The notes below the pieces were generated by a model. That model had not been told where the DNA came from, did no database searches, and was given only the letters and a program-made list of their open reading frames with translations. Positions 2,872-19,975 of a DNA stretch of 20,000 bases are shown piece by piece (within the stretch, counting starts at the first letter, position 1; each line of letters opens with the position of its first letter). A program made the position numbers and the translations under genes. This stretch comes from an uncultured virus (IMG/VR IMGVR_UViG_3300046546_000013). Its lineage: Duplodnaviria; Heunggongvirae; Uroviricota; Caudoviricetes. The DNA is taken from the IMG/VR virus record IMGVR_UViG_3300046546_000013, one strand, 5' to 3'.

Positions 2872-3921
2872 TTATTCAGAAATTGGGAAAGCAGCGTCCA
2901 CATAAGATGGTACAACCGATTTCTCAACTTTTTCTGTGTAATTTTGTTCAGCATTGTTGCTGATTCGAGATTTTTCGAGATTCTCGATCTTCTCATTCAA
3001 AGGTGCTACGGCTTCTGATACAGCCTTAGCAATAGCATCAGCATCTAACTCAACACTAGCTTCCGAATTAACTGTTTCTGGTTTTTCATCTGATTTATCG
3101 CCTTTTTCCAAAGCTGATAAACGATCGTTTACTGGTTTGAGCGCTTCGCCGAGCGCTTTTTTTAACTGTTCTTCCGTCATTTCCTCATCCTCCTCGGATT
3201 TATTTGTACTAAAAAAGGACTTAACCGATTCGATTAGTCCTTGTTTGGTAACTGATTTAGTTGTATTTATTGTGCCGATCAGCGTTGATAACTCGTTAAT
3301 TTCAGATTGAATACTAGCTATCTTGTCAGCATCGTTTGCTGTGTAATTATCTAAAATAGACCATGAAGCAGATCGAAAAGCATCTAAAGCTGCATTAATA
3401 TCCCGATAAGTCTTGCTGTTGTTAAAATTATCAGCTGTTTGCTTTTTGACATCCTCCACTTGAGCGGTTCCTGCTAAAGAGTAGCCTGTGAAATCCCCTT
3501 TCTGGATTGACTCCCACATTTCGTCAGTAGCTTTAGTGACAAGCACCCAAGTTCCTTTGGTGATTGTGGTTTCGCCGATAGTCATATCAACAGGGGCAAC
3601 ATAACTCTCTACTACTTTTCCAGCATTTGTGGTGAAATCGTGCTGTTTGTCAATTTGTTGATAATCCGCCATGAATCCATGTGCAGCCTTCTCGATTGTT
3701 TCAGCATCCATGAAATCCCCATGAACGTCTTCAACATCAGGCTCATAAACAACACCATATACAAGCTTCTGTGGATCATTCGATTTAGTAACCAACTTAA
3801 CTTCGGTTTCAAAATTAGGTTTGAGATCTTCAGCAGATTTAGTAAGAAAGAATGATTTCTTATTGGCTGCCTTATCTACATATGAAACATGTGTTACAAG
3901 AACGTTTTCTAGTTTTCGCAT
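2872..3921 (-). CDS. xkdF: XkdF-like prohead serine protease with C-terminal scaffold region
   Basis: VSYVDKAANK, LVYGVVYEPD...DVHGDFM...IEKAAHGFM...IDKQH...VVESY...KGTW...GDFTGYSLAG, followed by a coiled-coil-like C-terminal region. Confidence 0.85.
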   Translation of the reverse strand: MRKLENVLVTHVSYVDKAANKKSFFLTKSAEDLKPNFETEVKLVTKSNDPQKLVYGVVYEPDVEDVHGDFMDAETIEKAAHGFMADYQQIDKQHDFTTNAGKVVESYVAPVDMTIGETTITKGTWVLVTKATDEMWESIQKGDFTGYSLAGTAQVEDVKKQTADNFNNSKTYRDINAALDAFRSASWSILDNYTANDADKIASIQSEINELSTLIGTINTTKSVTKQGLIESVKSFFSTNKSEEDEEMTEEQLKKALGEALKPVNDRLSALEKGDKSDEKPETVNSEASVELDADAIAKAVSEAVAPLNEKIENLEKSRISNNAEQNYTEKVEKSVVPSYVDAAFPISE

Positions 3922-3940
3922 TTTCTCACCACCTTTCTAA

Positions 3941-8999: not shown

Positions 9000-9011
9000 T
9001 CCCTTTCCTAC

Positions 9012-9040
9012 ATGATATCAATAAATCAAGTGATACCCAA
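9012..9040 (-). promoter_or_regulatory. Candidate sigma-A promoter for the 322-aa moron
   Basis: Minus strand TTGGGT-N17-TATCAT with an extended TG, just downstream of a terminator. Confidence 0.5.
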
Positions 9041-9043
9041 TAG

Positions 9044-9069
9044 AAAAAAACAGCCCCTAGGGACTGTTT
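9044..9069 (-). terminator. Rho-independent terminator
   Basis: Minus strand AAACAGTCC-CTAG-GGGCTGTTT followed by further T residues. Confidence 0.75.
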
Positions 9070-9118
9070 AGTAGGAAGCACCAAAGATCATGTGAGTAAT
9101 CTAATTGCCAACTCCCAA

Positions 9119-9193
9119 AGTCACTGGTGAGGATTTGAACCTCACAAGTCTTACCTCGTTTTGAGATAGGCAATACCACTCTGCCACAGTGAC
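9119..9193 (-). ncRNA. tRNA-like element (pseudo-tRNA)
   Basis: Minus strand GTCACTG TG GCA GAGTGGTAT TGC C TATCT CAAAACG AGGTA AGACTT GTGAGG TTCAAAT CCTCAC CAGTGAC T. It has an acceptor stem, a D arm with GG and a TTCAAAT T-loop. The anticodon loop is non-canonical and there is no encoded CCA. Confidence 0.7.
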
Positions 9194-9195
9194 AT

Positions 9196-9350
9196 AAAAA
9201 AAGACGGCTAGCGAATGAAGATAAGGAGTGTGTTCAACTCCATTCATAATAGATTTTTTGTCGCCGTCTTAGTTAAATACAGGGCGCTGGGAATAATTTT
9301 CAGAAAGGAGGTCTGCCAACGTATCTTAAAGGAGTGCGCCCTGTTATTTA
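9196..9350 (-). ncRNA. Two large stem-loops displaying anti-Shine-Dalgarno motifs
   Basis: Closing stems are ACAGGGCGC/GCGCCCTGT (9279-9287 with 9336-9344) and AAGACGGC/GCCGTCTT (9201-9208 with 9263-9270, followed by a T-run on the minus strand). They enclose ACCTCCTTTCT, CACTCCTTT and CACTCCTT. Confidence 0.5.
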
Positions 9351-9367
9351 CAATAATTGATAATACT

Positions 9368-9422
9368 ATCTTACTATGGATTATTGTCATTAAACCGCCA
9401 TTATACCGCCAAAAAACCGCCA
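9368..9422 (-). promoter_or_regulatory. ArpU-type activator-dependent late promoter (three direct repeats plus a -10)
   Basis: ACCGCCA at 9394, 9405 and 9416 (11-bp period) right after the arpU stop; -10-like TAAGAT at 9368-9373. Late activators of the RinA/ArpU/Ltr family are known to bind repeats just downstream of their gene, upstream of terS. Confidence 0.7.
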
Positions 9423-9426
9423 TTTT

Positions 9427-9843
9427 TCATCGATAAGCGACAAGCTTGCCACGACGATAACTTTCAGCAAATTCAACCAATGCATCTGATTTCATTCGCT
9501 CAATTTGCCGAACTGAATAGCCCATCTCATCTGCGATCCTTAGATTAGAATACTGATCTTGTAAGCAGAAGCTATAATGAAGTATCTGTCTGCTCGTTAG
9601 TTTCAATGCCATAAGTGCCACGATTATTGCATCTCTTTCTGTTTCTGCATCCAATCTTTGAATAAAAGCATCCTCGGACTTGTTTCCATTACTAGGTGTT
9701 CTAGGCATATCAGTAATAATCGGTGAGCGGACATCGATCTTTGAACGACCTGCAATCCGCTCCAACCGACGGTAGTTCTTCAAAACATATCGTGCATTCT
9801 TTCTCGTTTGAGAGAAATCAACTTCTCTTAGTAATAGCATCAT
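9427..9843 (-). CDS. arpU: ArpU-family late transcriptional activator
   Basis: TRKNARYVLKNYRRLERIAGRSKIDVRSPIITDMPR...sigma region 4-like HTH...ALVEFAESY; located upstream of the packaging module. Confidence 0.9.
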   Translation of the reverse strand: MMLLLREVDFSQTRKNARYVLKNYRRLERIAGRSKIDVRSPIITDMPRTPSNGNKSEDAFIQRLDAETERDAIIVALMALKLTSRQILHYSFCLQDQYSNLRIADEMGYSVRQIERMKSDALVEFAESYRRGKLVAYR

Positions 9844-9942
9844 TGCTCAATCGCCCCTTTGTTTGGTATAATGAAGTTACCTTGGCGGGGACAAAATCAT
9901 TATTTTGGGGGCATTGGGCGATTGCTTAATGCTTTTTATTTT
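9843..9942 (+). ncRNA. Candidate antisense sRNA (promoter to terminator) against the arpU leader
   Basis: TTGCTC-N18-TATAAT with extended TG (9843-9872); terminator GCATTGGGC-GATT-GCTTAATGC-TTTTTATTTT (9911-9942). Confidence 0.55.
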
Positions 9943-9945
9943 GCT

Positions 9946-10182
9946 TTACTTTCGATCTCTTTTAACTGCTCTGTGACGATCACTTCGATGATCAAAGCCA
10001 TCTTGTTCCATAAAATAGCTTCCTCCATAATCTTGCTCCTCTTTATTTATAGGTTGACTTGATTGAAACTTTTCTTTGGCAATGGCTTGTTTCTCCTTTT
10101 CATCTAATTCTTTACCGAAAATTACACTAGCAAATACTGTCGCAAAAAGTGCCACGGCTACCAACACTGCAAAATCCATCAT
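9946..10182 (-). CDS. Hypothetical protein with N-terminal transmembrane segment
   Basis: 78 aa, hydrophobic N-terminus, RBS AGGGGGG, abuts the upstream gene. Confidence 0.6.
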   Translation of the reverse strand: MMDFAVLVAVALFATVFASVIFGKELDEKEKQAIAKEKFQSSQPINKEEQDYGGSYFMEQDGFDHRSDRHRAVKRDRK

Positions 10183-10668
10183 TTACCCCCCTAGCCTAAA
10201 CGAATTTTTTACAGAATTACGGATCTGATTCGCAATACTACTAGAAACATCTATCTCCATTCCGGAACGACTTAACATATTGGCAGAAATACTTGCTCCA
10301 ACTTTTAAACCCATACTCAATTGTCTTCCGGTTATATATGATCTGGCTACCTCATACAATTCACCTCGAGGGACAAAGTTAAACTTATATATTTCAAAAA
10401 AGCGGTCATTACTCATTTGAAAGAAATCTAACGCCAATTTGAATTTTGAGTACCCTTTGTATGTACCGTATTTTTTAACCAAATATACCCCACGATCATC
10501 ATCTGCCTTGATTTTATCTTTTTGATTGTCATTCATTTTTTTACTGGCTTCTGATTCTGAAACATTCTCAACGGACATGATCCATATTTTTTCCAAGCAA
10601 GCCTTCATGACTTCTTCATCGTTCGAATTCATACCATGAAAAGCAATCCGTCCTATTTCTTTTAACAT
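10183..10668 (-). CDS. Hypothetical phage protein
   Basis: 161 aa ORF in operon context with an RBS. Confidence 0.7.
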   Translation of the reverse strand: MLKEIGRIAFHGMNSNDEEVMKACLEKIWIMSVENVSESEASKKMNDNQKDKIKADDDRGVYLVKKYGTYKGYSKFKLALDFFQMSNDRFFEIYKFNFVPRGELYEVARSYITGRQLSMGLKVGASISANMLSRSGMEIDVSSSIANQIRNSVKNSFRLGG

Positions 10669-10673
10669 TTATT

Positions 10674-10874
10674 TCATCCCCCTGCTTCCATCGCATCCCT
10701 GACTAACGGATCGCTGATAATAATCTTGTACTTCATCTGCTCGTGCTGCAGCTGTTCTTGTAACTGCTCAATCTGTTTCTGTTGGTCCACAATTGTATAG
10801 GATAGCCAACTTAGGCCTGCAATCGTTAGCAGTATTGATACAACAGCCAGTACCGTAAAATGATTAACTTTCAT
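10674..10874 (-). CDS. Hypothetical membrane-anchored coiled-coil protein
   Basis: 66 aa, transmembrane helix followed by a Q-rich heptad pattern. Confidence 0.7.
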
Positions 10875-11388
10875 TGGATTGATCCAACAGTTCTGGATTC
10901 TCGTAGATGTTGCCTAAAATAGTTATATCGCTAGATGTTAAATTAAAATTGTGCAAGAATATTTCTTCTAAATCTTCCGCATCAGGTAAACTCATGGAAA
11001 CAGAAATACCATCAACTTCACTAGGTATAGGTTTGGGAGTGTCGAAATCATACTTGGCATCTTTGATTATCCATGCTGTTCCTGTTTCGTCTTTATCAAC
11101 TACTCCAACCATATGATTTTCTTGGTAATAGCCCATAGGCCACTCTTCCCAAAAGATGTCAATGATGTCACCTCTATAAACGTCCTTTTCCTCATCGTCT
11201 TCGTGTGAATCTGACATATACCCTTTCAAGCCTGTTGATTGCATGACTTCTATATCATAATCATCTTCATTAAGCATCGTATTAAGAGCATCAATCAGAT
11301 TAGTTGTGTATTCAATGTGTCCACAAACTTCTTTACCGTAAATCATTTGTTCTAATTCTTTATGCCAACCTCTAAATTTTGGTACCAT
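10864..11388 (-). CDS. yopX: YopX family protein
   Basis: MVPKFRGW...MQSTGLK...VYRGDII...[12 protein letters not shown] signature. Confidence 0.9.
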
Positions 11389-11403
11389 CTTATCCCTCCT
11401 GTT

Positions 11404-11736
11404 TCACTCCTGATCCCAAGTATCGAAAGCTTCGATATCGTCTCCACCACCCACAGGCTCTCCACCCACTGTATAGTAGGTAACTGTATTTTCTTCATAA
11501 CAGTTCTCGCAATATCTGGTTTCTTCGTCCTGCTTAATATATGTGTCTCCAGGTTCCAAATCCTTATCACATGCATTGCAGTACATTTCTATTACTTTCG
11601 TACCAATGTACTTTCGGAACACATCATTACTTTTACGTTTTAATGAGTTTTCAGCTGCTTCTTTCGATGAATACCAACGTCTTTCTACTTCATGATCTTT
11701 GTAGAACGTGGCTACTCCATGTTTAGTTAATTTCAT
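11404..11736 (-). CDS. Hypothetical protein with C-terminal zinc finger (CxxC...CxxC)
   Basis: ATG 11736 with RBS GGAGGT; CNAC...CENC. Confidence 0.7.
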   Translation of the reverse strand: MKLTKHGVATFYKDHEVERRWYSSKEAAENSLKRKSNDVFRKYIGTKVIEMYCNACDKDLEPGDTYIKQDEETRYCENCYEENTVTYYTVGGEPVGGGDDIEAFDTWDQE

Positions 11737-11748
11737 TTTCCTACCTCC

Positions 11749-11776
11749 GTTCATTTATCGCTGACGATTGCGGAAT
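11749..11776 (-). repeat. 28-bp Xer/dif-like site F
   Basis: Minus strand ATTCCGCAATC-GTCAGC-GATAAATGAAC; overlaps the stop codon of the upstream gene and precedes the next RBS. Confidence 0.6.
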
Positions 11777-11918
11777 TAACTTCTTGGCAGGCTATAACGT
11801 ATTTAACTGCTGGATAAGTGTTCATTTCTGCAATAGCACCCTCTGATGTGACAGCTTCAATTTGCATCGTTCCTACTGATCCATCGTGGGAAACGCATGT
11901 TAGTTCAAAGGTTTTCAT
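11751..11918 (-). CDS. Hypothetical small protein (cassette gene)
   Basis: 55 aa, MKTFELTC...; TGATG coupling to the upstream gene. Confidence 0.6.
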   Translation of the reverse strand: MKTFELTCVSHDGSVGTMQIEAVTSEGAIAEMNTYPAVKYVIACQEVNSAIVSDK

Positions 11919-12289
11919 CACTCTTCCTCCTGTTCCTGCGCCCAATCAAGAAACGCTTGGGCAACCACTATGCAATCTTCTTCAGTGACTTCGTCCATTT
12001 CGTCTAACAGAAATGCGATCATCGATAGATGCTCTAATGCATGCAATACTGTTTTAGGTTTAGTGATGTCGTATTGTTTTATAACTTCTTGTAACATTTC
12101 CTGCTGATTCTCGTTGAGTTGCGGTTGCCTATTCAGCTTCTCCAAGTCCGCTAATTCGAGTTCAATAAATGAGATTCTCAAATCTTTCTGGCGTTCAACT
12201 GCAGGGAAGTTGGTTCCTCTAAGCTCCCAAAGTTTTGCTAATTCCTCTTTTCTAGTGGAAATTAATTTTGATAAACTGGTTGCACTCAC
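11918..12289 (-). CDS. Hypothetical protein (cassette gene)
   Basis: Likely start is GTG 12289 (RBS GAGGA). The ORF-track extension to 12541 overlaps another gene. Contains QPQLNENQQ...FLDWAQEQEEE. Confidence 0.65.
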   Translation of the reverse strand: MSATSLSKLISTRKEELAKLWELRGTNFPAVERQKDLRISFIELELADLEKLNRQPQLNENQQEMLQEVIKQYDITKPKTVLHALEHLSMIAFLLDEMDEVTEEDCIVVAQAFLDWAQEQEEE

Positions 12290-12302
12290 GTTCATTCCTC
12301 GC

Positions 12303-12330
12303 TTTCTGCTATTTCGTCGGATAGCTGAAT
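12303..12330 (-). repeat. 28-bp Xer/dif-like site E
   Basis: Minus strand ATTCAGCTATC-CGACGA-AATAGCAGAAA; near-perfect inverted arms (TTCAGCTAT/ATAGCAGAA). Confidence 0.65.
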
Positions 12331-12332
12331 TT

Positions 12333-12695
12333 TTAACACTCATTTTTCTCGATTGCTTCTTTGATAGTCCGACATGGGAAAGTGTTATAACCGTTCTTGT
12401 CATATTTCTTTGTAGAATATTGCGGAACGATATTTCCTTGGTCATTAATAAACACACTAAAATAGTCCGTACCCGAAGGTTTATTGGCTTTTTCAAAATA
12501 GTAAACACCGCATATAGGAATTTCTGATACTTTAAATTCATCAGGATTATAACCTTCTGAAATCAACATATGCCTAACAGCGTGAATATGCGTTTGCTCT
12601 AAACTGGCTGGAAAAGCCAGTATGTTTTCATGAGTCAATGCTTTGCCTTCAAAGTACATGTAGTTATCTATATACTCATTAAATGACTTTTTCAT
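12333..12695 (-). CDS. Hypothetical protein (cassette gene)
   Basis: 120 aa, RBS GAGGTG. Confidence 0.75.
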   Translation of the reverse strand: MKKSFNEYIDNYMYFEGKALTHENILAFPASLEQTHIHAVRHMLISEGYNPDEFKVSEIPICGVYYFEKANKPSGTDYFSVFINDQGNIVPQYSTKKYDKNGYNTFPCRTIKEAIEKNEC

Positions 12696-12698
12696 TAA

Positions 12699-12726
12699 TT
12701 CACCTCTTTAAAATGGATAGCTGCCT
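12699..12726 (-). repeat. Degenerate 28-bp site D (left arm only conserved)
   Basis: Minus strand AGGCAGCTATC-CATTTT-AAAGAGGTGAA; shares CAGCTATCC with site E. Confidence 0.45.
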
Positions 12727-12965
12727 CACACATCATACTCACCAATTATTTGTTCATCAGTTGTCCCAATCAATCCCCAAGCTTTCGCCTGCATTTCATA
12801 ACGATATTTGTTGTCATATAAATATGCCAATCTACTTTGGGCTGCCTTTGTCAGCTCTGGAATATCCAACCCCAGCGATTTCGCCTTGATTAGTTCACTA
12901 GAAATTTCGTTAATCTCGTCTTTATGTGACTGGATAATGTCCATAATGTTGTCTTTGTTAAGCAC
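12726..12965 (-). CDS. Hypothetical protein (cassette gene)
   Basis: 79 aa, GTG start with RBS AAGGAGG. Confidence 0.7.
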   Translation of the reverse strand: MLNKDNIMDIIQSHKDEINEISSELIKAKSLGLDIPELTKAAQSRLAYLYDNKYRYEMQAKAWGLIGTTDEQIIGEYDV

Positions 12966-12981
12966 TGCTACATCCTCCTTC

Positions 12982-13009
12982 AGTTGGTTATTTTGGTGGA
13001 TAGTGGACT
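12982..13009 (-). repeat. 28-bp Xer/dif-like site C
   Basis: Minus strand AGTCCACTATC-CACCAA-AATAACCAACT. Confidence 0.65.
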
Positions 13010-13391
13010 AAGCCTGTGTAATTACAGACCACATATCCTTGACTCTCAAAGCACAAACGCTATAGTAATATCCACCATTTCCATCGTTAGCTTCACACTC
13101 TGCTTTAGCAATCTCATTTTGATTGTGATAGATAATTACATCTGCATAGGAATCATGACCGTCACCGTTGAAAATATCTTGTCCTTTGTCGTGAATTTGT
13201 ATATCTGTAATAACGGCATCTAATTTCACATCTGTAAACGATCCGCCAGCCCAAGCGCAACAATCCTGTTCCGAGCATTCAATTGTAATTTCTGTCCCAT
13301 CTTCCAAAACTAATTTATCGGAATCCCAACTCACAATTTTTTTAAAAACAATTTGTTTCTTTAGTTCTTCTAAAGTATGATATTCAATCAT
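13008..13391 (-). CDS. Hypothetical protein (cassette gene; DCCAW and NGGYY motifs)
   Basis: 127 aa, acidic and beta-rich by composition, RBS AAGGGG. Confidence 0.75.
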   Translation of the reverse strand: MIEYHTLEELKKQIVFKKIVSWDSDKLVLEDGTEITIECSEQDCCAWAGGSFTDVKLDAVITDIQIHDKGQDIFNGDGHDSYADVIIYHNQNEIAKAECEANDGNGGYYYSVCALRVKDMWSVITQA

Positions 13392-13410
13392 TATCTTTTC
13401 CCCTTTTCTT

Positions 13411-13438
13411 AGTTGTGTATTTCTGTCGATAACTTACT
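13411..13438 (-). repeat. 28-bp Xer/dif-like site B
   Basis: Minus strand AGTAAGTTATC-GACAGA-AATACACAACT. Confidence 0.65.
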
Positions 13439-13649
13439 TTAGTTTCACGTCGTCTTCATTTTTTGGAGAGTATTCATACATTTCAAAATCATATTCTCCC
13501 CAGTTTTTTTATTCATACATGTCGTCTTCGAATTCATAACCGCCGTCAACAAGTTGCTGATACATAGCTTGCTTTAGTTTTTTATCATCGTTTGTCATGC
13601 ATAAGATTTCGCCTGCGTCCATATCTACAAGAACTTTTACTGCCTTCAT
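13434..13649 (-). pseudogene. 71-codon cassette gene interrupted by an in-frame TAA
   Basis: RBS GGAGG and ATG 13649 give MKAVKVLVDMDAGEILCMTNDDKKLKQAMYQQLVDGGYEFEDDMYE*KNWGEYDFEMYEYSPKNEDDVKLK*. The internal stop is at 13509-13511. Confidence 0.65.
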
Positions 13650-13665
13650 TTTCTGTTTTCCTCCA

Positions 13666-13693
13666 ATTCCGTTATCTCTTCCGATTCTTAACT
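13666..13693 (-). repeat. 28-bp Xer/dif-like site A (recombinase-proximal)
   Basis: Minus strand AGTTAAGAATC-GGAAGA-GATAACGGAAT; overlaps the recombinase stop codon. Confidence 0.65.
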
Positions 13694-14680
13694 AACAAAT
13701 TTTTGATGCGACAACTTGAGTTCCTCGTCGCCTATCATCGAATATTTCAACGTAGTATCAATTGATTCATGGCCTAAGAAGTTCATCACCAATTCGATTG
13801 GCATCCCGTGTCTTCTTGCCAAGGTCGCTGCAGTCCGTCTGAATCTGTGAGGATGGACATTTGCCACACCTGCTCGATTGCCCAAACGCTTTACTAGCTT
13901 CTGAACTCCTGCTGATGTCATTTCCTTGCCCACTGTTTGCCCAAAGAATAATGGTCCAGTGATATGTGGCACGTCTTTCAGATAGTGGTTCAATGCCATC
14001 TTCGCTTTCGCATTCAGGTATAGTGTTCGCTGTTTATTGCCTTTCCCTATAACAGTGATAGAATCATTTTCTTGATCGTAGTCACGGAAGTTTAGTGATA
14101 CTAATTCTGAAACCCGACATCCAGTACTGAGTAACAATTCGATTACTAGAGCTTCTTTGGAATTTGCTGAGACCGATCGCAACTTTTCAACTTCTAACTC
14201 GCTGAGTTCCTGTTTTCTTCGCTTTGGCACTTTGATATTCTCTACTCTTGCCCCAGGATCTTTTGAAATATATTCTTCATTGCATAACCACTTGAAGAAT
14301 CGAACAATACAACCTCGTTCTCTTGCGAGCGTGCCTTTACTGACCCTATCGATCATTTCCCTGTTTGCAATAAACAAGCGAATGTCGTTCGTAGTAACAT
14401 CGCTGAATGGCTTCCTAACACTTCTCATAAAGAGATTGATTGTCTGCATGTAAAGATTCAAAGTTCCGCTTGAAAGTCCCTGTATCTTCTTAGAAACGAA
14501 GAATTGCTTATATGCTGCAATATCAGAAGTTTCATCGTAAATTACAACTTCATTTTTCTGCTCAACGATCAAATAATTCGCACATTCTACCGTTAGAACA
14601 TCTTTTAGCTTTTTCAATTGATCTCCGCTTAACTGGTCCTGAAGTTCAAGTAATGTCCTATTGATCAATTTTTCTTGCAA
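13688..14680 (-). CDS. XerC/D-like tyrosine recombinase
   Basis: 330 aa, TTG start with RBS GAGGTGG. Full catalytic set is present: R (TGCRVSE), K (GKGNK), HxxR (HPHRFRR), H (LGH), Y (TLKY). N-terminal SAM-like core-binding region. Confidence 0.95.
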   Translation of the reverse strand: MQEKLINRTLLELQDQLSGDQLKKLKDVLTVECANYLIVEQKNEVVIYDETSDIAAYKQFFVSKKIQGLSSGTLNLYMQTINLFMRSVRKPFSDVTTNDIRLFIANREMIDRVSKGTLARERGCIVRFFKWLCNEEYISKDPGARVENIKVPKRRKQELSELEVEKLRSVSANSKEALVIELLLSTGCRVSELVSLNFRDYDQENDSITVIGKGNKQRTLYLNAKAKMALNHYLKDVPHITGPLFFGQTVGKEMTSAGVQKLVKRLGNRAGVANVHPHRFRRTAATLARRHGMPIELVMNFLGHESIDTTLKYSMIGDEELKLSHQKFVS

Positions 14681-14698
14681 GTAAAGACCACCTCGCTT

Positions 14699-14974
14699 CT
14701 AGCAGACTTCGTGGATCTTCTTAAGACTTACTACAGTCACATCGTTAAGATTTCGTTGTATTTCATCATCTTTTTCTTCAATACAGCTGAGGATCCTTAC
14801 TCGTGCTGAATTCTTATAGATTCGACTTACTTGCGCTCTTATCTGACCTGAAAAAGGGCTTCCCGGAGTGCAAATGTAGCTTTCACCAACTTTTACAGAT
14901 CCTTTTTCTTGAACATTTGCTGATTCATATTCTCCAAAATCTTCGAATGGCGCTTTAATGCTTCTGCTTCTCAT
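14699..14974 (-). CDS. Hypothetical phage protein
   Basis: 91 aa, RBS AGGAGG. Confidence 0.7.
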   Translation of the reverse strand: MRSRSIKAPFEDFGEYESANVQEKGSVKVGESYICTPGSPFSGQIRAQVSRIYKNSARVRILSCIEEKDDEIQRNLNDVTVVSLKKIHEVC

Positions 14975-14986
14975 TGATGGTCCCTC

Positions 14987-15394
14987 CTAAAGTGGATTAA
15001 TTGCAATTTCTGTTCTTGGATTTAAGCTATATACTTTCCGGCAGATATTGACAGCGATTTGGCCATCGTCTTTATACAAAATGCCGTTGACCGCATCCGT
15101 CACTGCTTTGAAATAGTTATCGATATCTGGTTTCTTATCGCAATACATAGTCTCTTCTTCTAGCAAAGTCCTGTTTTTCTTCACTTTCAAGATATAGGCT
15201 GGTGGATATACGAAGAAACAAATATCAATCATCACAGGGCCTTTCTCAATTAGCAGCGGCTTTGTAGCCATAGCATGATACTTAACCGCATTTTTATATG
15301 CTTTCATCGCTGATTCCTCATAGGGAGTCTTACGATGCTTGGTGAACCTCGGCCTTGATTGAGGTTTTGGTGTGATCGGTATGACGATTTTCAA
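14987..15394 (-). CDS. rusA: RusA-family Holliday junction resolvase
   Basis: PKPQSRPRF...KKPDIDNYFKAVTDAVNGILYKDDGQI signature. Confidence 0.92.
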   Translation of the reverse strand: MKIVIPITPKPQSRPRFTKHRKTPYEESAMKAYKNAVKYHAMATKPLLIEKGPVMIDICFFVYPPAYILKVKKNRTLLEEETMYCDKKPDIDNYFKAVTDAVNGILYKDDGQIAVNICRKVYSLNPRTEIAINPL

Positions 15395-15408
15395 GCCATC
15401 TGCTCCTT

Positions 15409-16314
15409 TCAGTGCTTCGTTTTGTTTAGATATGCTGCTAGTTTCGCATCAAGCTCTGCTTGACGCTCAGGTGATAACTGTTCTTCCCCCTGTTCGTTTA
15501 CAGCCCAATCAGGTAGTTTTTCCTCACGTAGTGGCTTTTGATTATAGCCTTGTTTCTTAGCGCCTCTAGTTCGTTGATAATCCCTTGCTTGATCGATCGT
15601 TTTAACGTTAGCATCTGCCCATTCCTGTAAAGAAGCTGTTAAAAAGCTAATAGCCCGGTTCTTAGGAACATCTTTACTACCAGCAAGTTTAATAGCAGCC
15701 TCTACAAGTTCATCGCCATAGATATCCACCAGATTAAGCAGATCTTCGACCTGTACAACATTTGGAAAGAGCCATAATTTTTGGAAAGTTTCAAGGGACG
15801 CATTCTCGCTCGCAGTAGCATCTTCTTTTATTTCCTTTTCTTTACTTTCCTTTACTTTACTTTGTTGATTATTCCCCTGATTAACTGAGTTATTCCGCCC
15901 ATTAATCGAGATATTCGACCGATTAACCTCATTTGTCAGCAAATACTTAAATTCAAGCTCAACTTTCTTACGTTCCTTAGTGGCTAGAATGTATCTGTTT
16001 TGAATTCCTTTAGAAGTTAATACGGAGTATTTATCAAAAATATCTTTATCAAAGAATTTTACTTGCACGGCTTTTCTAACCAGTTCTTCAACTGTGCCCT
16101 CCTTCGTACCAACTTCGTCAGCCACTAAGAACGCAAGGTCGTCATCCCACAAAACGTAATACCCCTCATCACGATAAATATTAGCCAGCAGGGCGACCAG
16201 AATATGAACGGCTTCTTTACCGCATGCTTTAATAATTCTTCGAACTTTTAAATCTGATAAAAAATCGACATCCAGAGGAAAATAATCAAGACCTTTCTTC
16301 GTTGGTCTTGCCAC
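15409..16314 (-). CDS. Replication initiator / replisome organiser (DUF4373-like N-terminus, DnaD-like C-terminus)
   Basis: MARPTKKGLDYFPLDVDF...LTSKGIQNRY; C-terminal LQEWADANVKT...EKLPDW. Confidence 0.85.
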   Translation of the reverse strand: MARPTKKGLDYFPLDVDFLSDLKVRRIIKACGKEAVHILVALLANIYRDEGYYVLWDDDLAFLVADEVGTKEGTVEELVRKAVQVKFFDKDIFDKYSVLTSKGIQNRYILATKERKKVELEFKYLLTNEVNRSNISINGRNNSVNQGNNQQSKVKESKEKEIKEDATASENASLETFQKLWLFPNVVQVEDLLNLVDIYGDELVEAAIKLAGSKDVPKNRAISFLTASLQEWADANVKTIDQARDYQRTRGAKKQGYNQKPLREEKLPDWAVNEQGEEQLSPERQAELDAKLAAYLNKTKH

Positions 16315-19499: not shown

Positions 19500-19754
19500 T
19501 TAAGCAACAAGTTCTGGTGTTGAGGCGAACTGCCATTTTTCGTCAATATAGGAATAAATGTCCTGTGCTACTTCATCGGTAGCTAAAAAACGAATAATGA
19601 TTTCTTCAACACCGCCAGGGTTCATGAACAGTTCGCCTTCAATACCAATTGAAATGCTAAACTTGCGTTTAATCGCAGGAATAATCATTTCGACATAGCG
19701 TGGTAGAAATCCCGAATCGACATTTGCTTTGATCATTTGCGGTTTGTCCTTCAT
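19500..19754 (-). CDS. Hypothetical protein
   Basis: 84 aa, ATGA overlap with the cro-like gene, RBS GAGGAGGT. Confidence 0.7.
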   Translation of the reverse strand: MKDKPQMIKANVDSGFLPRYVEMIIPAIKRKFSISIGIEGELFMNPGGVEEIIIRFLATDEVAQDIYSYIDEKWQFASTPELVA

Positions 19755-19975
19755 TTTCCCACCTCCTCACGTGTCATTTCGCGTAGTTTAGGTTCAAAAA
19801 AAAGAGTCCATTCAAAATCTAAAGCATCTGCTATTTTCATAGCTTTTTCGACAGAGGGTCTCCGTCTTCCTTGCTCTATTGATGAATATGTTGTTCTTGG
19901 AATGTTTGATAACTGAGCAACTTCATCTTGAGTTAGATTTTTTTCCAAACGCAATTTAGTTAACCAATTTTCCAT
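19751..19975 (-). CDS. cro: Cro-like XRE-family HTH regulator
   Basis: LRLEKNLTQDEVAQLSNIPRTTYSSIEQGRRRPS; first gene of the early lytic operon, RBS AAAGGAG. Confidence 0.85.
   Translation of the reverse strand: MENWLTKLRLEKNLTQDEVAQLSNIPRTTYSSIEQGRRRPSVEKAMKIADALDFEWTLFFEPKLREMTREEVGK

Follow-up and report, generated by a model that had tools for sequence, protein, structure and literature searches.

The 20,000-nucleotide (nt) stretch analysed here, hereafter the window, belongs to an uncultured Caudoviricetes virus (IMG/VR record IMGVR_UViG_3300046546_000013) and carries a run of 28-base-pair (bp) sites at the gene junctions downstream of a XerD-like tyrosine recombinase. Across related Enterococcus prophages, we found that these sites form one family, that their 6-bp centres fall into six classes, and that the classes follow each other in the same order in every array. 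We consider, with a probability of roughly one half, that the sites act as heterospecific Xer-type crossover points at which collinear phages exchange cassettes in register, a reaction for which the recombinase would be an optional catalyst. In a broader form, which we hold at somewhat below even odds, the arrays may constitute a natural cassette-exchange system of Enterococcus temperate phages with six (type I) or more ordered sites that have common arms and incompatible 6-bp overlaps, in which a XerD-like recombinase borne by a minority of the phages would swap slots in register, also in trans, as an evolvability device for accessory (probably anti-defence) genes. A sequence-only reading of the window had listed six sites (A to F) and had taken them for an integron-like platform.

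Ordered junction sites with six spacer classes

The search for relatives of the recombinase yielded 26 viral loci, in which nucleotide homology to the window shrinks, 3' of the recombinase gene, to islands of 30-50 bp that fall on sites A, C, E, and F. The intervening genes differ between relatives, and the gene-junction sequences of all relatives show one site family. A first detection rule combined spacer words with loose demands on the arms; it called 84 sites within 80 kb of arrays, 2 on the plus strand elsewhere (189 kb), and 2 on the minus strand (269 kb). As selection by spacer is circular, detection was rebuilt from the arms alone, and 107 of the 114 in-array matches then carried one of six exact hexamers (GGAAGA 22, CGACGA 20, CACCAA 19, CTATAC 18, GTCAGC 15, and GACAGA 13), the remainder being four matches one mismatch off a class and three weak strays. 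The CTATAC class surfaced through this arms-only detection, and its member in the window is site G. With a combined rule (an arm score of 5 bits or more together with a class spacer), 114 sites were called in 23 non-identical related loci, in the constant order A, B, C, E, F, G. The 46 non-redundant arrays, comprising the recombinase-relative loci and the loci added through site patterns, contain 0 violations of the spacer order GGAAGA, GACAGA, CACCAA, CGACGA, GTCAGC, CTATAC. All sites of all 46 arrays stand in a single orientation, which is kept even where the following text resembles the end of an opposite-strand gene and not a ribosome-binding site (RBS).

The family is confined to the arrays. 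How frequent the motif is elsewhere had been named as a point to check, and outside the arrays we found no class-spacer site in 180,380 nt on both strands. An arms-only scan outside the arrays (344,615 nt on each of two strands) gave five matches of at least 12 bits, of which three lie 213-222 nt upstream of called arrays; two of these three represent one degenerate C-type site read on both strands. Within the 25.8-kb contig to which the window belongs, no arms-only match of at least 10 bits was found near cro (19751-19975) or elsewhere beyond the array, its reverse reads, and four weak matches of 10.1-10.9 bits.

Sites were read on the minus strand as an 11-nt left arm, a 6-nt spacer, and an 11-nt right arm, were scored with the arms-only matrix, and are classed by their spacers. 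Those of the window are A (AGTTAAGAATC-GGAAGA-GATAACGGAAT, 13666..13693, 25.0 bits), B (AGTAAGTTATC-GACAGA-AATACACAACT, 13411..13438, 19.8 bits), C (AGTCCACTATC-CACCAA-AATAACCAACT, 12982..13009, 27.8 bits, its island conserved in relatives), E (ATTCAGCTATC-CGACGA-AATAGCAGAAA, 12303..12330, 27.2 bits, surrounded by an island at 12331-12283 that is conserved in many relatives), F (ATTCCGCAATC-GTCAGC-GATAAATGAAC, 11749..11776, 19.1 bits), and G (AGTTGGCTATC-CTATAC-AATTGTGGACC, 10784..10811, 19.1 bits), which lies within a 66-amino-acid (aa) open reading frame (ORF) at 10674-10874. Site G had been overlooked by the sequence-only reading, which saw the motif at no other junction in the window. The six 28-mers that it had listed are all present verbatim, and its unit lengths of 255, 429, 283, 396, and 554 bp follow from their positions; its D (12699..12726), however, is only a half-site, with an E-type left arm CAGCTATCC and the first spacer base followed by unrelated sequence, and it scores below 10 bits. 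Half-site D marks the joint of a 120-aa gene within the C-E slot, and in two relatives (L084 and L005) a full E site comes after the homologous 79-aa gene, where the window has the half-site. The claimed 11-6-11 geometry and single orientation are borne out in the relatives, and the overlap of site A with the recombinase stop is real, the TAA lying within the left arm of A. Most sites do stand between a stop codon and an RBS as had been described, but F is placed inside the 3' end of an ORF whose stop (ORF end 11751) falls in its right arm.

The core WATC-N6-RATA has seven minus-strand matches in the 20-kb window, five of them being A, B, C, E, and F, and one plus-strand match, with a mean of 2.7 (sd 1.5) in 200 dinucleotide shuffles. 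The full consensus of the sequence-only reading matches A, B, and C only (0.0 in shuffles). Since both patterns were derived from the sites themselves, independent support comes from the relatives.

The matrix consensus is AGTCCGCTATC-N6-AATAGCGGACT, in which the arms are the same 11-mer inverted at 10 of 11 positions, and the reverse strand of real sites also scores highly with the arms-only matrix. The 11-6-11 geometry is constant across 209 sites (156 unique), and the spacer is the best-conserved part of the site. Arm identity within a class is 0.79 (left) and 0.68 (right), as compared to 0.64 and 0.59 between classes; left arms are thus more conserved and more class-specific than right arms. 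The two arms of a site do not covary, with complementary positions numbering 6.08 of 11 against 6.05 +/- 0.07 when the partners are reshuffled (a value at least as high arises in 353 of 1000 shuffles), and the RNA folds of the sites are weak (mean minimum free energy -2.5 kcal/mol). Given arm pairing no better than random and these weak folds, the consensus symmetry probably reflects two half-sites for one protein on duplex DNA and not a selected hairpin. An attC-like or RNA hairpin was rejected on the same two grounds and for want of an Rfam match, the covariance models giving 0 matches at E <= 1 in window positions 9000-15000. In a generic 11-6-11 dyad scan, the window's sites do not stand out by their dyad symmetry alone.

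Three of three Enterococcus genomes contain one host dif each (ACTTTGTATAA-TATATA-TTATGTAAACT), which scores -20.9 (forward) and -17.7 (reverse) bits against the phage-site matrix, the median of true sites being 22.7 bits. Its inner 4+4 positions alone give -24.8 bits, and on these inner arm positions mimicry of host dif was rejected; the outer arm positions weakly resemble host dif (3.9-7.1 bits, random fraction 6.6e-4 to 2.5e-3). These scores indicate that the sites are Xer-like in geometry and not dif mimics. A survey of half-sites gave 19 left and 19 right ones, several retaining the whole spacer, and a fixed cleavage position was sought in them, with no consistent cut point. A Chi-like reading of AGCGG in the consensus right arm was dropped without a count, most real arms viewed having no AGCGG. 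Beside the A site of one relative (L023, 7081-7130), the right arm recurs inverted as a perfect 8-bp palindrome, AGCGGAAT-TA-ATTCCGCT.

Homology breaks and turnover of slot contents

To locate the exchange point, we compared pairs of arrays with homologous left flanks and unrelated right flanks. In 180 such pairs the left arm was 0.93 identical and the right arm 0.63, with a background of 0.66 in 687 pairs unrelated on both sides, and the mirror class (32 pairs) gave 0.82 for the left arm and 0.87 for the right. Each arm, in other words, goes with the flank on its own side. Position by position, left-arm identity was 89-100% in 28 non-A pairs and 55-100% in 151 class-A pairs, where it was lowest at the variable arm positions 7 and 10. 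Spacer identity was 99-100% in the left-homologous pairs, and identity dropped to background at position 18, which is the first base of the right arm. As identity is high through the spacer and at background from the first right-arm base, the exchange point appears to lie in the spacer or at its edges. An expectation of the sequence-only reading, that synteny breakpoints between relatives would fall at the sites, is thereby borne out.

Ant-metagenome assemblies (runs X5, X10, X19, and X20; two DNA and two RNA libraries) were examined as assembled contigs, presence in an RNA library not being counted as evidence of transcription. Across window positions 10600-14700, contigs end or fork at C, E, F, and G, and the contig joints in these libraries connect conserved islands that belong to relatives occurring together. 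The short contigs of such relatives match the conserved islands only, which suggests that several array variants coexist in one sample. Neither an excision circle nor a deletion between sites turned up in these contigs, a kind of data that could not reveal either.

The content of the units differs greatly among relatives, as had been anticipated: the 163 inter-site segments of the 46 arrays fall into 128 sequence clusters, with 23 clusters among 35 segments in the C-E slot and 30 among 36 in the E-F slot. Among 82 representative cassette proteins, 16 match Pfam at E <= 1e-4, among them C5, Dam-type, and N4/N6 DNA methyltransferases, MazG, HNH, YopX, DUF7448, a MepB-like protein, a lipoprotein signal, and a helix-turn-helix protein; the other 66 match nothing. 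Where a cassette is common to two arrays, the neighbour across the site is also common in 3 of 28 cases, as compared to 21 of 1118 otherwise, and with the neighbour shared in only 3/28 cases the linkage across a site is weak. Fifteen of the 24 clusters seen in at least two arrays occur in both recombinase-bearing and recombinase-less arrays, which is indicative that cassettes circulate between phages with and without the enzyme.

The only family present in all 14 of 14 full arrays is that of the 62-66-aa proteins containing site G. A universal neighbour protein was considered as the binder of the sites and was rejected, because this sole 14/14 family is the G-containing protein itself, by eye a small membrane protein. 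In four loci (L017, L022, L023, and L037) the G-containing frame ends in the right arm of G and a new gene then starts. Since G lies within the coding sequence of the small protein and the ending of the frame varies in relatives, exchange at G would change the C-terminus of the protein.

The recombinase and the competing explanations

The recombinase of the window (13688..14680, minus strand, 330 aa, TTG start) is XerD-like. It matches Pfam Phage_integrase (2.2e-29) and SAM-like N-terminal domains (SAM_4, 6.8e-11), and it aligns with XerD (1a0p) over both domains (phmmer 9.4e-26). The alignment to 1a0p places R in 'CRVSEL', K in 'GKGNKQR', H and R in 'PHRFRR', H in 'LGHES', and Y in 'LKYS', six positions which we take to be the catalytic residues of a tyrosine recombinase; the enzyme had already been called intact and Xer-like. 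Its identity is 22-32% to the Xer-like proteins of the hosts, whose genomes hold 2-6 homologues, and 21-26% to the main integrases compared. An A-class site overlaps the recombinase stop or lies within 2 nt of it in 17 of the 20 close-relative loci that include the 3' end of the gene; in L007, L009, and L010 the first called A site is ~300 nt downstream of the recombinase, and in L023 (66% identity) it is 94 nt downstream of the stop. At least five different upstream contexts precede the gene, and no site is found upstream of it. More distant homologues (31-34% identity) are present in Terrisporobacter phage TPELB_ph1 and Clostridium phage phiCp-D (L163 5923-6918 and L164 5974-6951), where the tail genes lie on one side of them and the holin gene on the other, a different context in which no array was seen; ParM is also encoded by phiCp-D. 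Arrays beside distant homologues (31-36% identity) were sought with a generic 11-6-11 dyad scan of four loci, which gave noise only.

Divergent homologues extend the picture to a second array type. Of 134 Enterococcaceae genomes searched, 16 have recombinase homologues at E <= 1e-50, mostly of 45-56% identity, and among the 14 divergent loci examined with ~8 kb of downstream sequence, one has a normal type I array and six have what we term type II arrays. In that type I locus (L186/L218, G009:C39:34584-35207) the homologue is 77-80% identical over the aligned part and broken by two in-frame TAG codons, and the full series A, B, C, E, F, G still follows it. The type II arrays (L205-L207, L214-L216, L225, and L226, in other Enterococcaceae prophages) have the left arm AGTCCACTAAC and the spacer order GGAAGA, GACCGA/GACGGA, CACCAG/CACGAG, TCAGCA, CGACGC/CGAGGG, GTCGGC/GTCAGG, that is, the type I series with 0-2 changes in each spacer and in the same order, plus the extra class TCAGCA. 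Because the series is nearly the same in order and sequence in both types, it appears to be old and conserved. A GGAAGA site lies within ~60 nt of the recombinase stop in four type II loci. By these comparisons, the recombinase seems to keep its place at the array head across deep divergence and yet to be optional in both array types.

The mechanism that we propose starts from what is observed: a family of sites that keep a fixed order and are confined to the arrays, hypervariable cargo, homology that breaks between the arms, and a recombinase whose active-site residues align. In each site, an asymmetric overlap of 6 bp would be flanked by two half-sites of 11 bp, both meant for the same protein. 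Tyrosine recombinases need matching overlaps between recombining sites, and this rule, taken with six unlike spacers, argues against excision or capture within one array and favours exchange in which like sites on two genomes pair: with a different overlap at each of six array positions, a site could pair productively only with its counterpart at the same position in another genome. When collinear phages cross over there (e.g., an infecting phage and a resident prophage), everything downstream would be swapped in register. Repeated crossovers would shuffle each slot independently without deletion or reordering of the array, six different centres meaning that the order is never scrambled and the array is not deleted. 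The XerD-like recombinase at the array head, presumably made from the early lytic operon, would be the likely catalyst, acting in cis and also in trans on the arrays of phages without it. We infer that the enzyme binds and cleaves the sites, that the spacers must be identical, and that the enzyme can act in trans. Two inverted half-sites, a most-conserved asymmetric 6-bp centre, one orientation, confinement to one operon, and exchange between the arms would together be best explained by the core sites of a tyrosine recombinase.

Several observations weigh against this proposal, and the enzyme is its weak point, because its absence from most arrays means that trans action or another catalyst must be assumed. 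We sampled arrays without regard to the recombinase by taking 23 non-redundant arrays that were found via site patterns, whose first site is A, and whose upstream sequence extends over 1.1 kb or more. Sixteen have no homologue in the locus, and unrelated replication modules (DnaB-type, RecT/Lin1244/RusA, DEAD-helicase, RecU, and MazG) abut their site A; the gene is present in seven, ending at A in five and lying 0.6-0.95 kb upstream in two. The link that had been drawn between recombinase and array therefore stands in part, since the gene mostly adjoins the first site where both occur but the arrays do not depend on it. The isolated E. gallinarum phages phiEG37K and EG-TP1, which are relatives of the window phage, have arrays without recombinase, and in four complete proviruses that lack it the main integrase is the only tyrosine recombinase encoded. 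Three comparable main integrases from recombinase-less proviruses (the longest frame taken from the fourth locus was not the integrase) are of two types, ~29% identical, with 24-27% identity to the window's own integrase, and the main phage integrase was rejected as the common factor on account of these two types. Two loci (L044, about 556-596, and L091, about 3892-3932) retain ~20 nt of the recombinase 3' end before an intact A, fused to the stop of an upstream 91-aa gene; this remnant is, by its sequence, apparently a deletion scar, and its presence beside an intact array indicates that the gene can be lost while the array persists. Conversely, seven of the 14 divergent homologue loci show no clear array with the patterns used, and the type II E-site word has six matches in two genomes, four in recombinase-headed arrays and two in recombinase-less ones.

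Further points on the same side concern the sites. The right arm of type II sites is mostly just the RBS TTGAAAGGAGA, with no dyad. In each class the invariant block ATC-spacer-RAT spans 12-14 nt, so that sequence alone cannot separate a spacer cut by a recombinase from a microhomology crossover. Five of the 128 cassette clusters occur in two different slot types, and for these homology ends at the outer edges of the site and not in the spacer; partial right-arm duplications and half-sites are likewise exceptions to breakage in the spacer. Finally, the junction islands 11949-11909 and 11404-11368 are conserved and have no motif, yet they bound variable genes in relatives.

Much of this would be expected if the sites were conserved intercistronic elements of some other function, whether operators of a dimeric phage or host protein or signals linked to stop codon and RBS, and if exchange took place by short-homology recombination, through a phage single-strand annealing protein or host RecA, at the only sequences the phages share, the recombinase being one more accessory gene. 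We regard this as the main rival, though less likely than our proposal. It gains from the predominance of arrays without recombinase, from the RecT-type or other recombination modules of these phages, from the mosaic boundaries at motif-less islands, from the inter-slot moves that break at outer site edges together with the partial right-arm duplications, from the type II layout of left arm and spacer with the RBS directly behind, and from the position of most sites between stop codon and RBS. A regulator's site would not, however, be expected to hold six spacers near-invariant (107 of 114) while its arms vary, nor to be absent from the cro/repressor region and everywhere else scanned, nor to persist in array orientation where no forward gene start seems to follow. 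The common block of 12-14 nt is, moreover, very short for homology-driven exchange, and the XerD-like gene at the array head in two lineages, 45-56% identical, is left unexplained.

The sites may also be true site-specific sites served not by the adjacent recombinase but by a host tyrosine recombinase (Xer or an orphan paralogue) or another factor common to the hosts. Nine named Enterococcus species or strains have prophages in which the array is conserved and the phage recombinase absent, and the 2-6 homologues per host genome (22-32% identity) and the weak likeness of the outer arm positions to host dif (3.9-7.1 bits) lean the same way. Host dif itself scores -21 bits against the site matrix and its inner 4+4 positions -24.8 bits, both arms are near one consensus, which suggests one protein rather than a XerC/XerD pair, and the array-head position of the phage recombinase goes unexplained; we find such a host enzyme improbable. 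Less credible still, to the point of being very improbable, is the integron-like platform of the sequence-only reading, in which the recombinase would excise, capture, and reorder cassettes within one genome with site A as attI. The recombinase does adjoin the first site, the units have one or two genes and no evident promoters, a few cassettes (5/128 clusters) occur in different slots, and half-sites such as D resemble insertion joints. Reordering is nevertheless contradicted by an order never violated in 46 arrays, and capture or excision between the sites of one array is argued against by the mutually different spacers, neighbours so unlike that excision between them should be blocked. Folding or covariation of the attC kind is also absent, the recombinase gene runs in the same direction as the array and has its stop in the site, unlike the intI/attI layout, and most arrays have no enzyme.

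Known systems and the genomic setting

The XerCD/dif system and the pdif modules of Acinetobacter plasmids resemble the phage arrays in having 28-bp 11-6-11 sites that bound small accessory-gene modules (PMC10132070), and XerCD/dif also in the XerD-like sequence of the recombinase found here. The same paper describes pdif sites as resembling chromosomal dif and a pdif module as flanked by oppositely oriented (C/D versus D/C) sites (PMC10132070), and in this the phage sites differ, with one orientation in all 46 arrays. They differ further in the dif score of -21 bits, in arms of one consensus, and in six ordered spacer classes, and the phage arrays differ in standing within a phage operon, with a phage-encoded enzyme sometimes present.

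Among engineered systems, heterospecific lox and FRT sites are used for recombinase-mediated cassette exchange, where the spacer decides pairing and unlike spacers protect an interval from deletion. The phage sites are alike in having inverted-repeat arms around an asymmetric spacer, and spacer-determined pairing is proposed for them by analogy; lox and FRT are, however, engineered 13-8-13 sites, whereas here a natural ordered series of six 11-6-11 sites occurs in many phages. Integrons, too, have a tyrosine recombinase beside mostly co-oriented, promoter-less, highly variable small genes. Their attC sites are recognised as folded single strands in which the structure is conserved and little of the sequence, whereas the phage sites have conserved sequence, no arm covariation, weak folds, and a fixed order; an IntI-type integrase is present in every functional integron platform, in contrast to the 16 of 23 arrays here without any homologue in the locus.

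Shufflons of IncI plasmids have one tyrosine recombinase (Rci) acting on many sfx sites with a conserved spacer and one well-conserved arm. These sfx sites resemble the type II sites, which have a spacer and a single conserved arm, but they are inverted and invert segments within a single gene, whereas the phage sites are direct repeats between genes and differ in their spacers. Other short conserved elements of single orientation at phage gene junctions are the mycobacteriophage stoperators, the start-associated sequences, and the T4-type promoter-stem-loops, which are repressor sites, translation-linked motifs, or promoters with one consensus each; cassettes with T4-type promoter-stem-loops coincide with modular shuffling of early genes. 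The sites described here differ from these elements in their six ordered spacer classes and dyad arms and in having no copy at the genetic switch and no promoter signal. A stoperator-type repressor site was specifically considered and rejected, as there is no match of at least 10 bits near cro. We found no description of these ordered junction elements in full-text-indexed work, a coverage that excludes subscription journals, and as far as that coverage reaches they are an undescribed conserved feature of these phages, even if the reading as intercistronic elements were right.

Phage mosaicism is usually ascribed to rare illegitimate or short-homology recombination followed by selection. If the proposed exchange takes place, a dedicated and fixed series of crossover points, some with their own recombinase, would amount to a programmed mechanism of phage mosaicism. 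The cargo (orphan DNA methyltransferases, MazG, HNH, and many small unknowns) is of the kind expected for counter-defence genes, and the sites could therefore serve as a simple handle for mining such genes. Conceivably, if the six spacers are truly orthogonal, they would also provide a natural toolkit of non-cross-reacting sites for one enzyme.

The window lies within a 25.8-kb provirus record, with every gene on the minus strand. The order on that strand is a cro-like repressor gene (19751-19975), a replication and recombination module that includes RusA (14987-15394), the 330-aa recombinase, the small genes, YopX, an ArpU-like activator (9427-9843), and the terminase and head genes. Related prophages are contained in Enterococcus genomes (E. 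casseliflavus, E. innesii, E. viikkiensis, and others). A second tyrosine recombinase lies beyond cro at the prophage end, outside the window (C1:25143-25724, plus strand, of its own contig; Pfam 7e-27), and is presumably the true, ordinary integrase, so that the 330-aa enzyme would be an extra one. The earlier remark that the units have no evident promoters holds, with 13 promoter-like matches in 9000-15500 against 19.4 expected and nothing above chance, and the same scan gave no terminator-like site on the minus strand inside the array.

The slots of the window are filled, all on the minus strand, as follows. The A-B cassette (13431..13649) has a 46-aa ORF that ends at an in-frame TAA, after which the frame continues for 24 codons to a stop in site B. 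The TAA may be a nonsense mutation or may be followed by a vestigial tail, and short repeats, ATGTATGAATA and GAAGACGAC, flank it. The B-C cassette (13008..13391) encodes a 127-aa DUF7448 protein (7.9e-21; phrog_2131). The C-E slot (12333..12965) holds the 79-aa gene (12726-12965) and the 120-aa gene (12333-12695) joined at half-site D, and the E-F slot (11751..12289) a 123-aa gene with a GTG start (11918-12289) and a 56-aa gene (11751-11921), which meet in a stop/start overlap. The F-G region (10674..11736) comprises a 110-aa gene (11404-11736), YopX (10864-11388), and the 66-aa gene that holds G. As for the two motif-less islands, the one at 11909-11949 consists of the overlapping stop/start GGAACAGGAGGAAGAGTGATGA, the genes before it all ending in EQEEE, and the one at 11368-11404 is the RBS and start of YopX.

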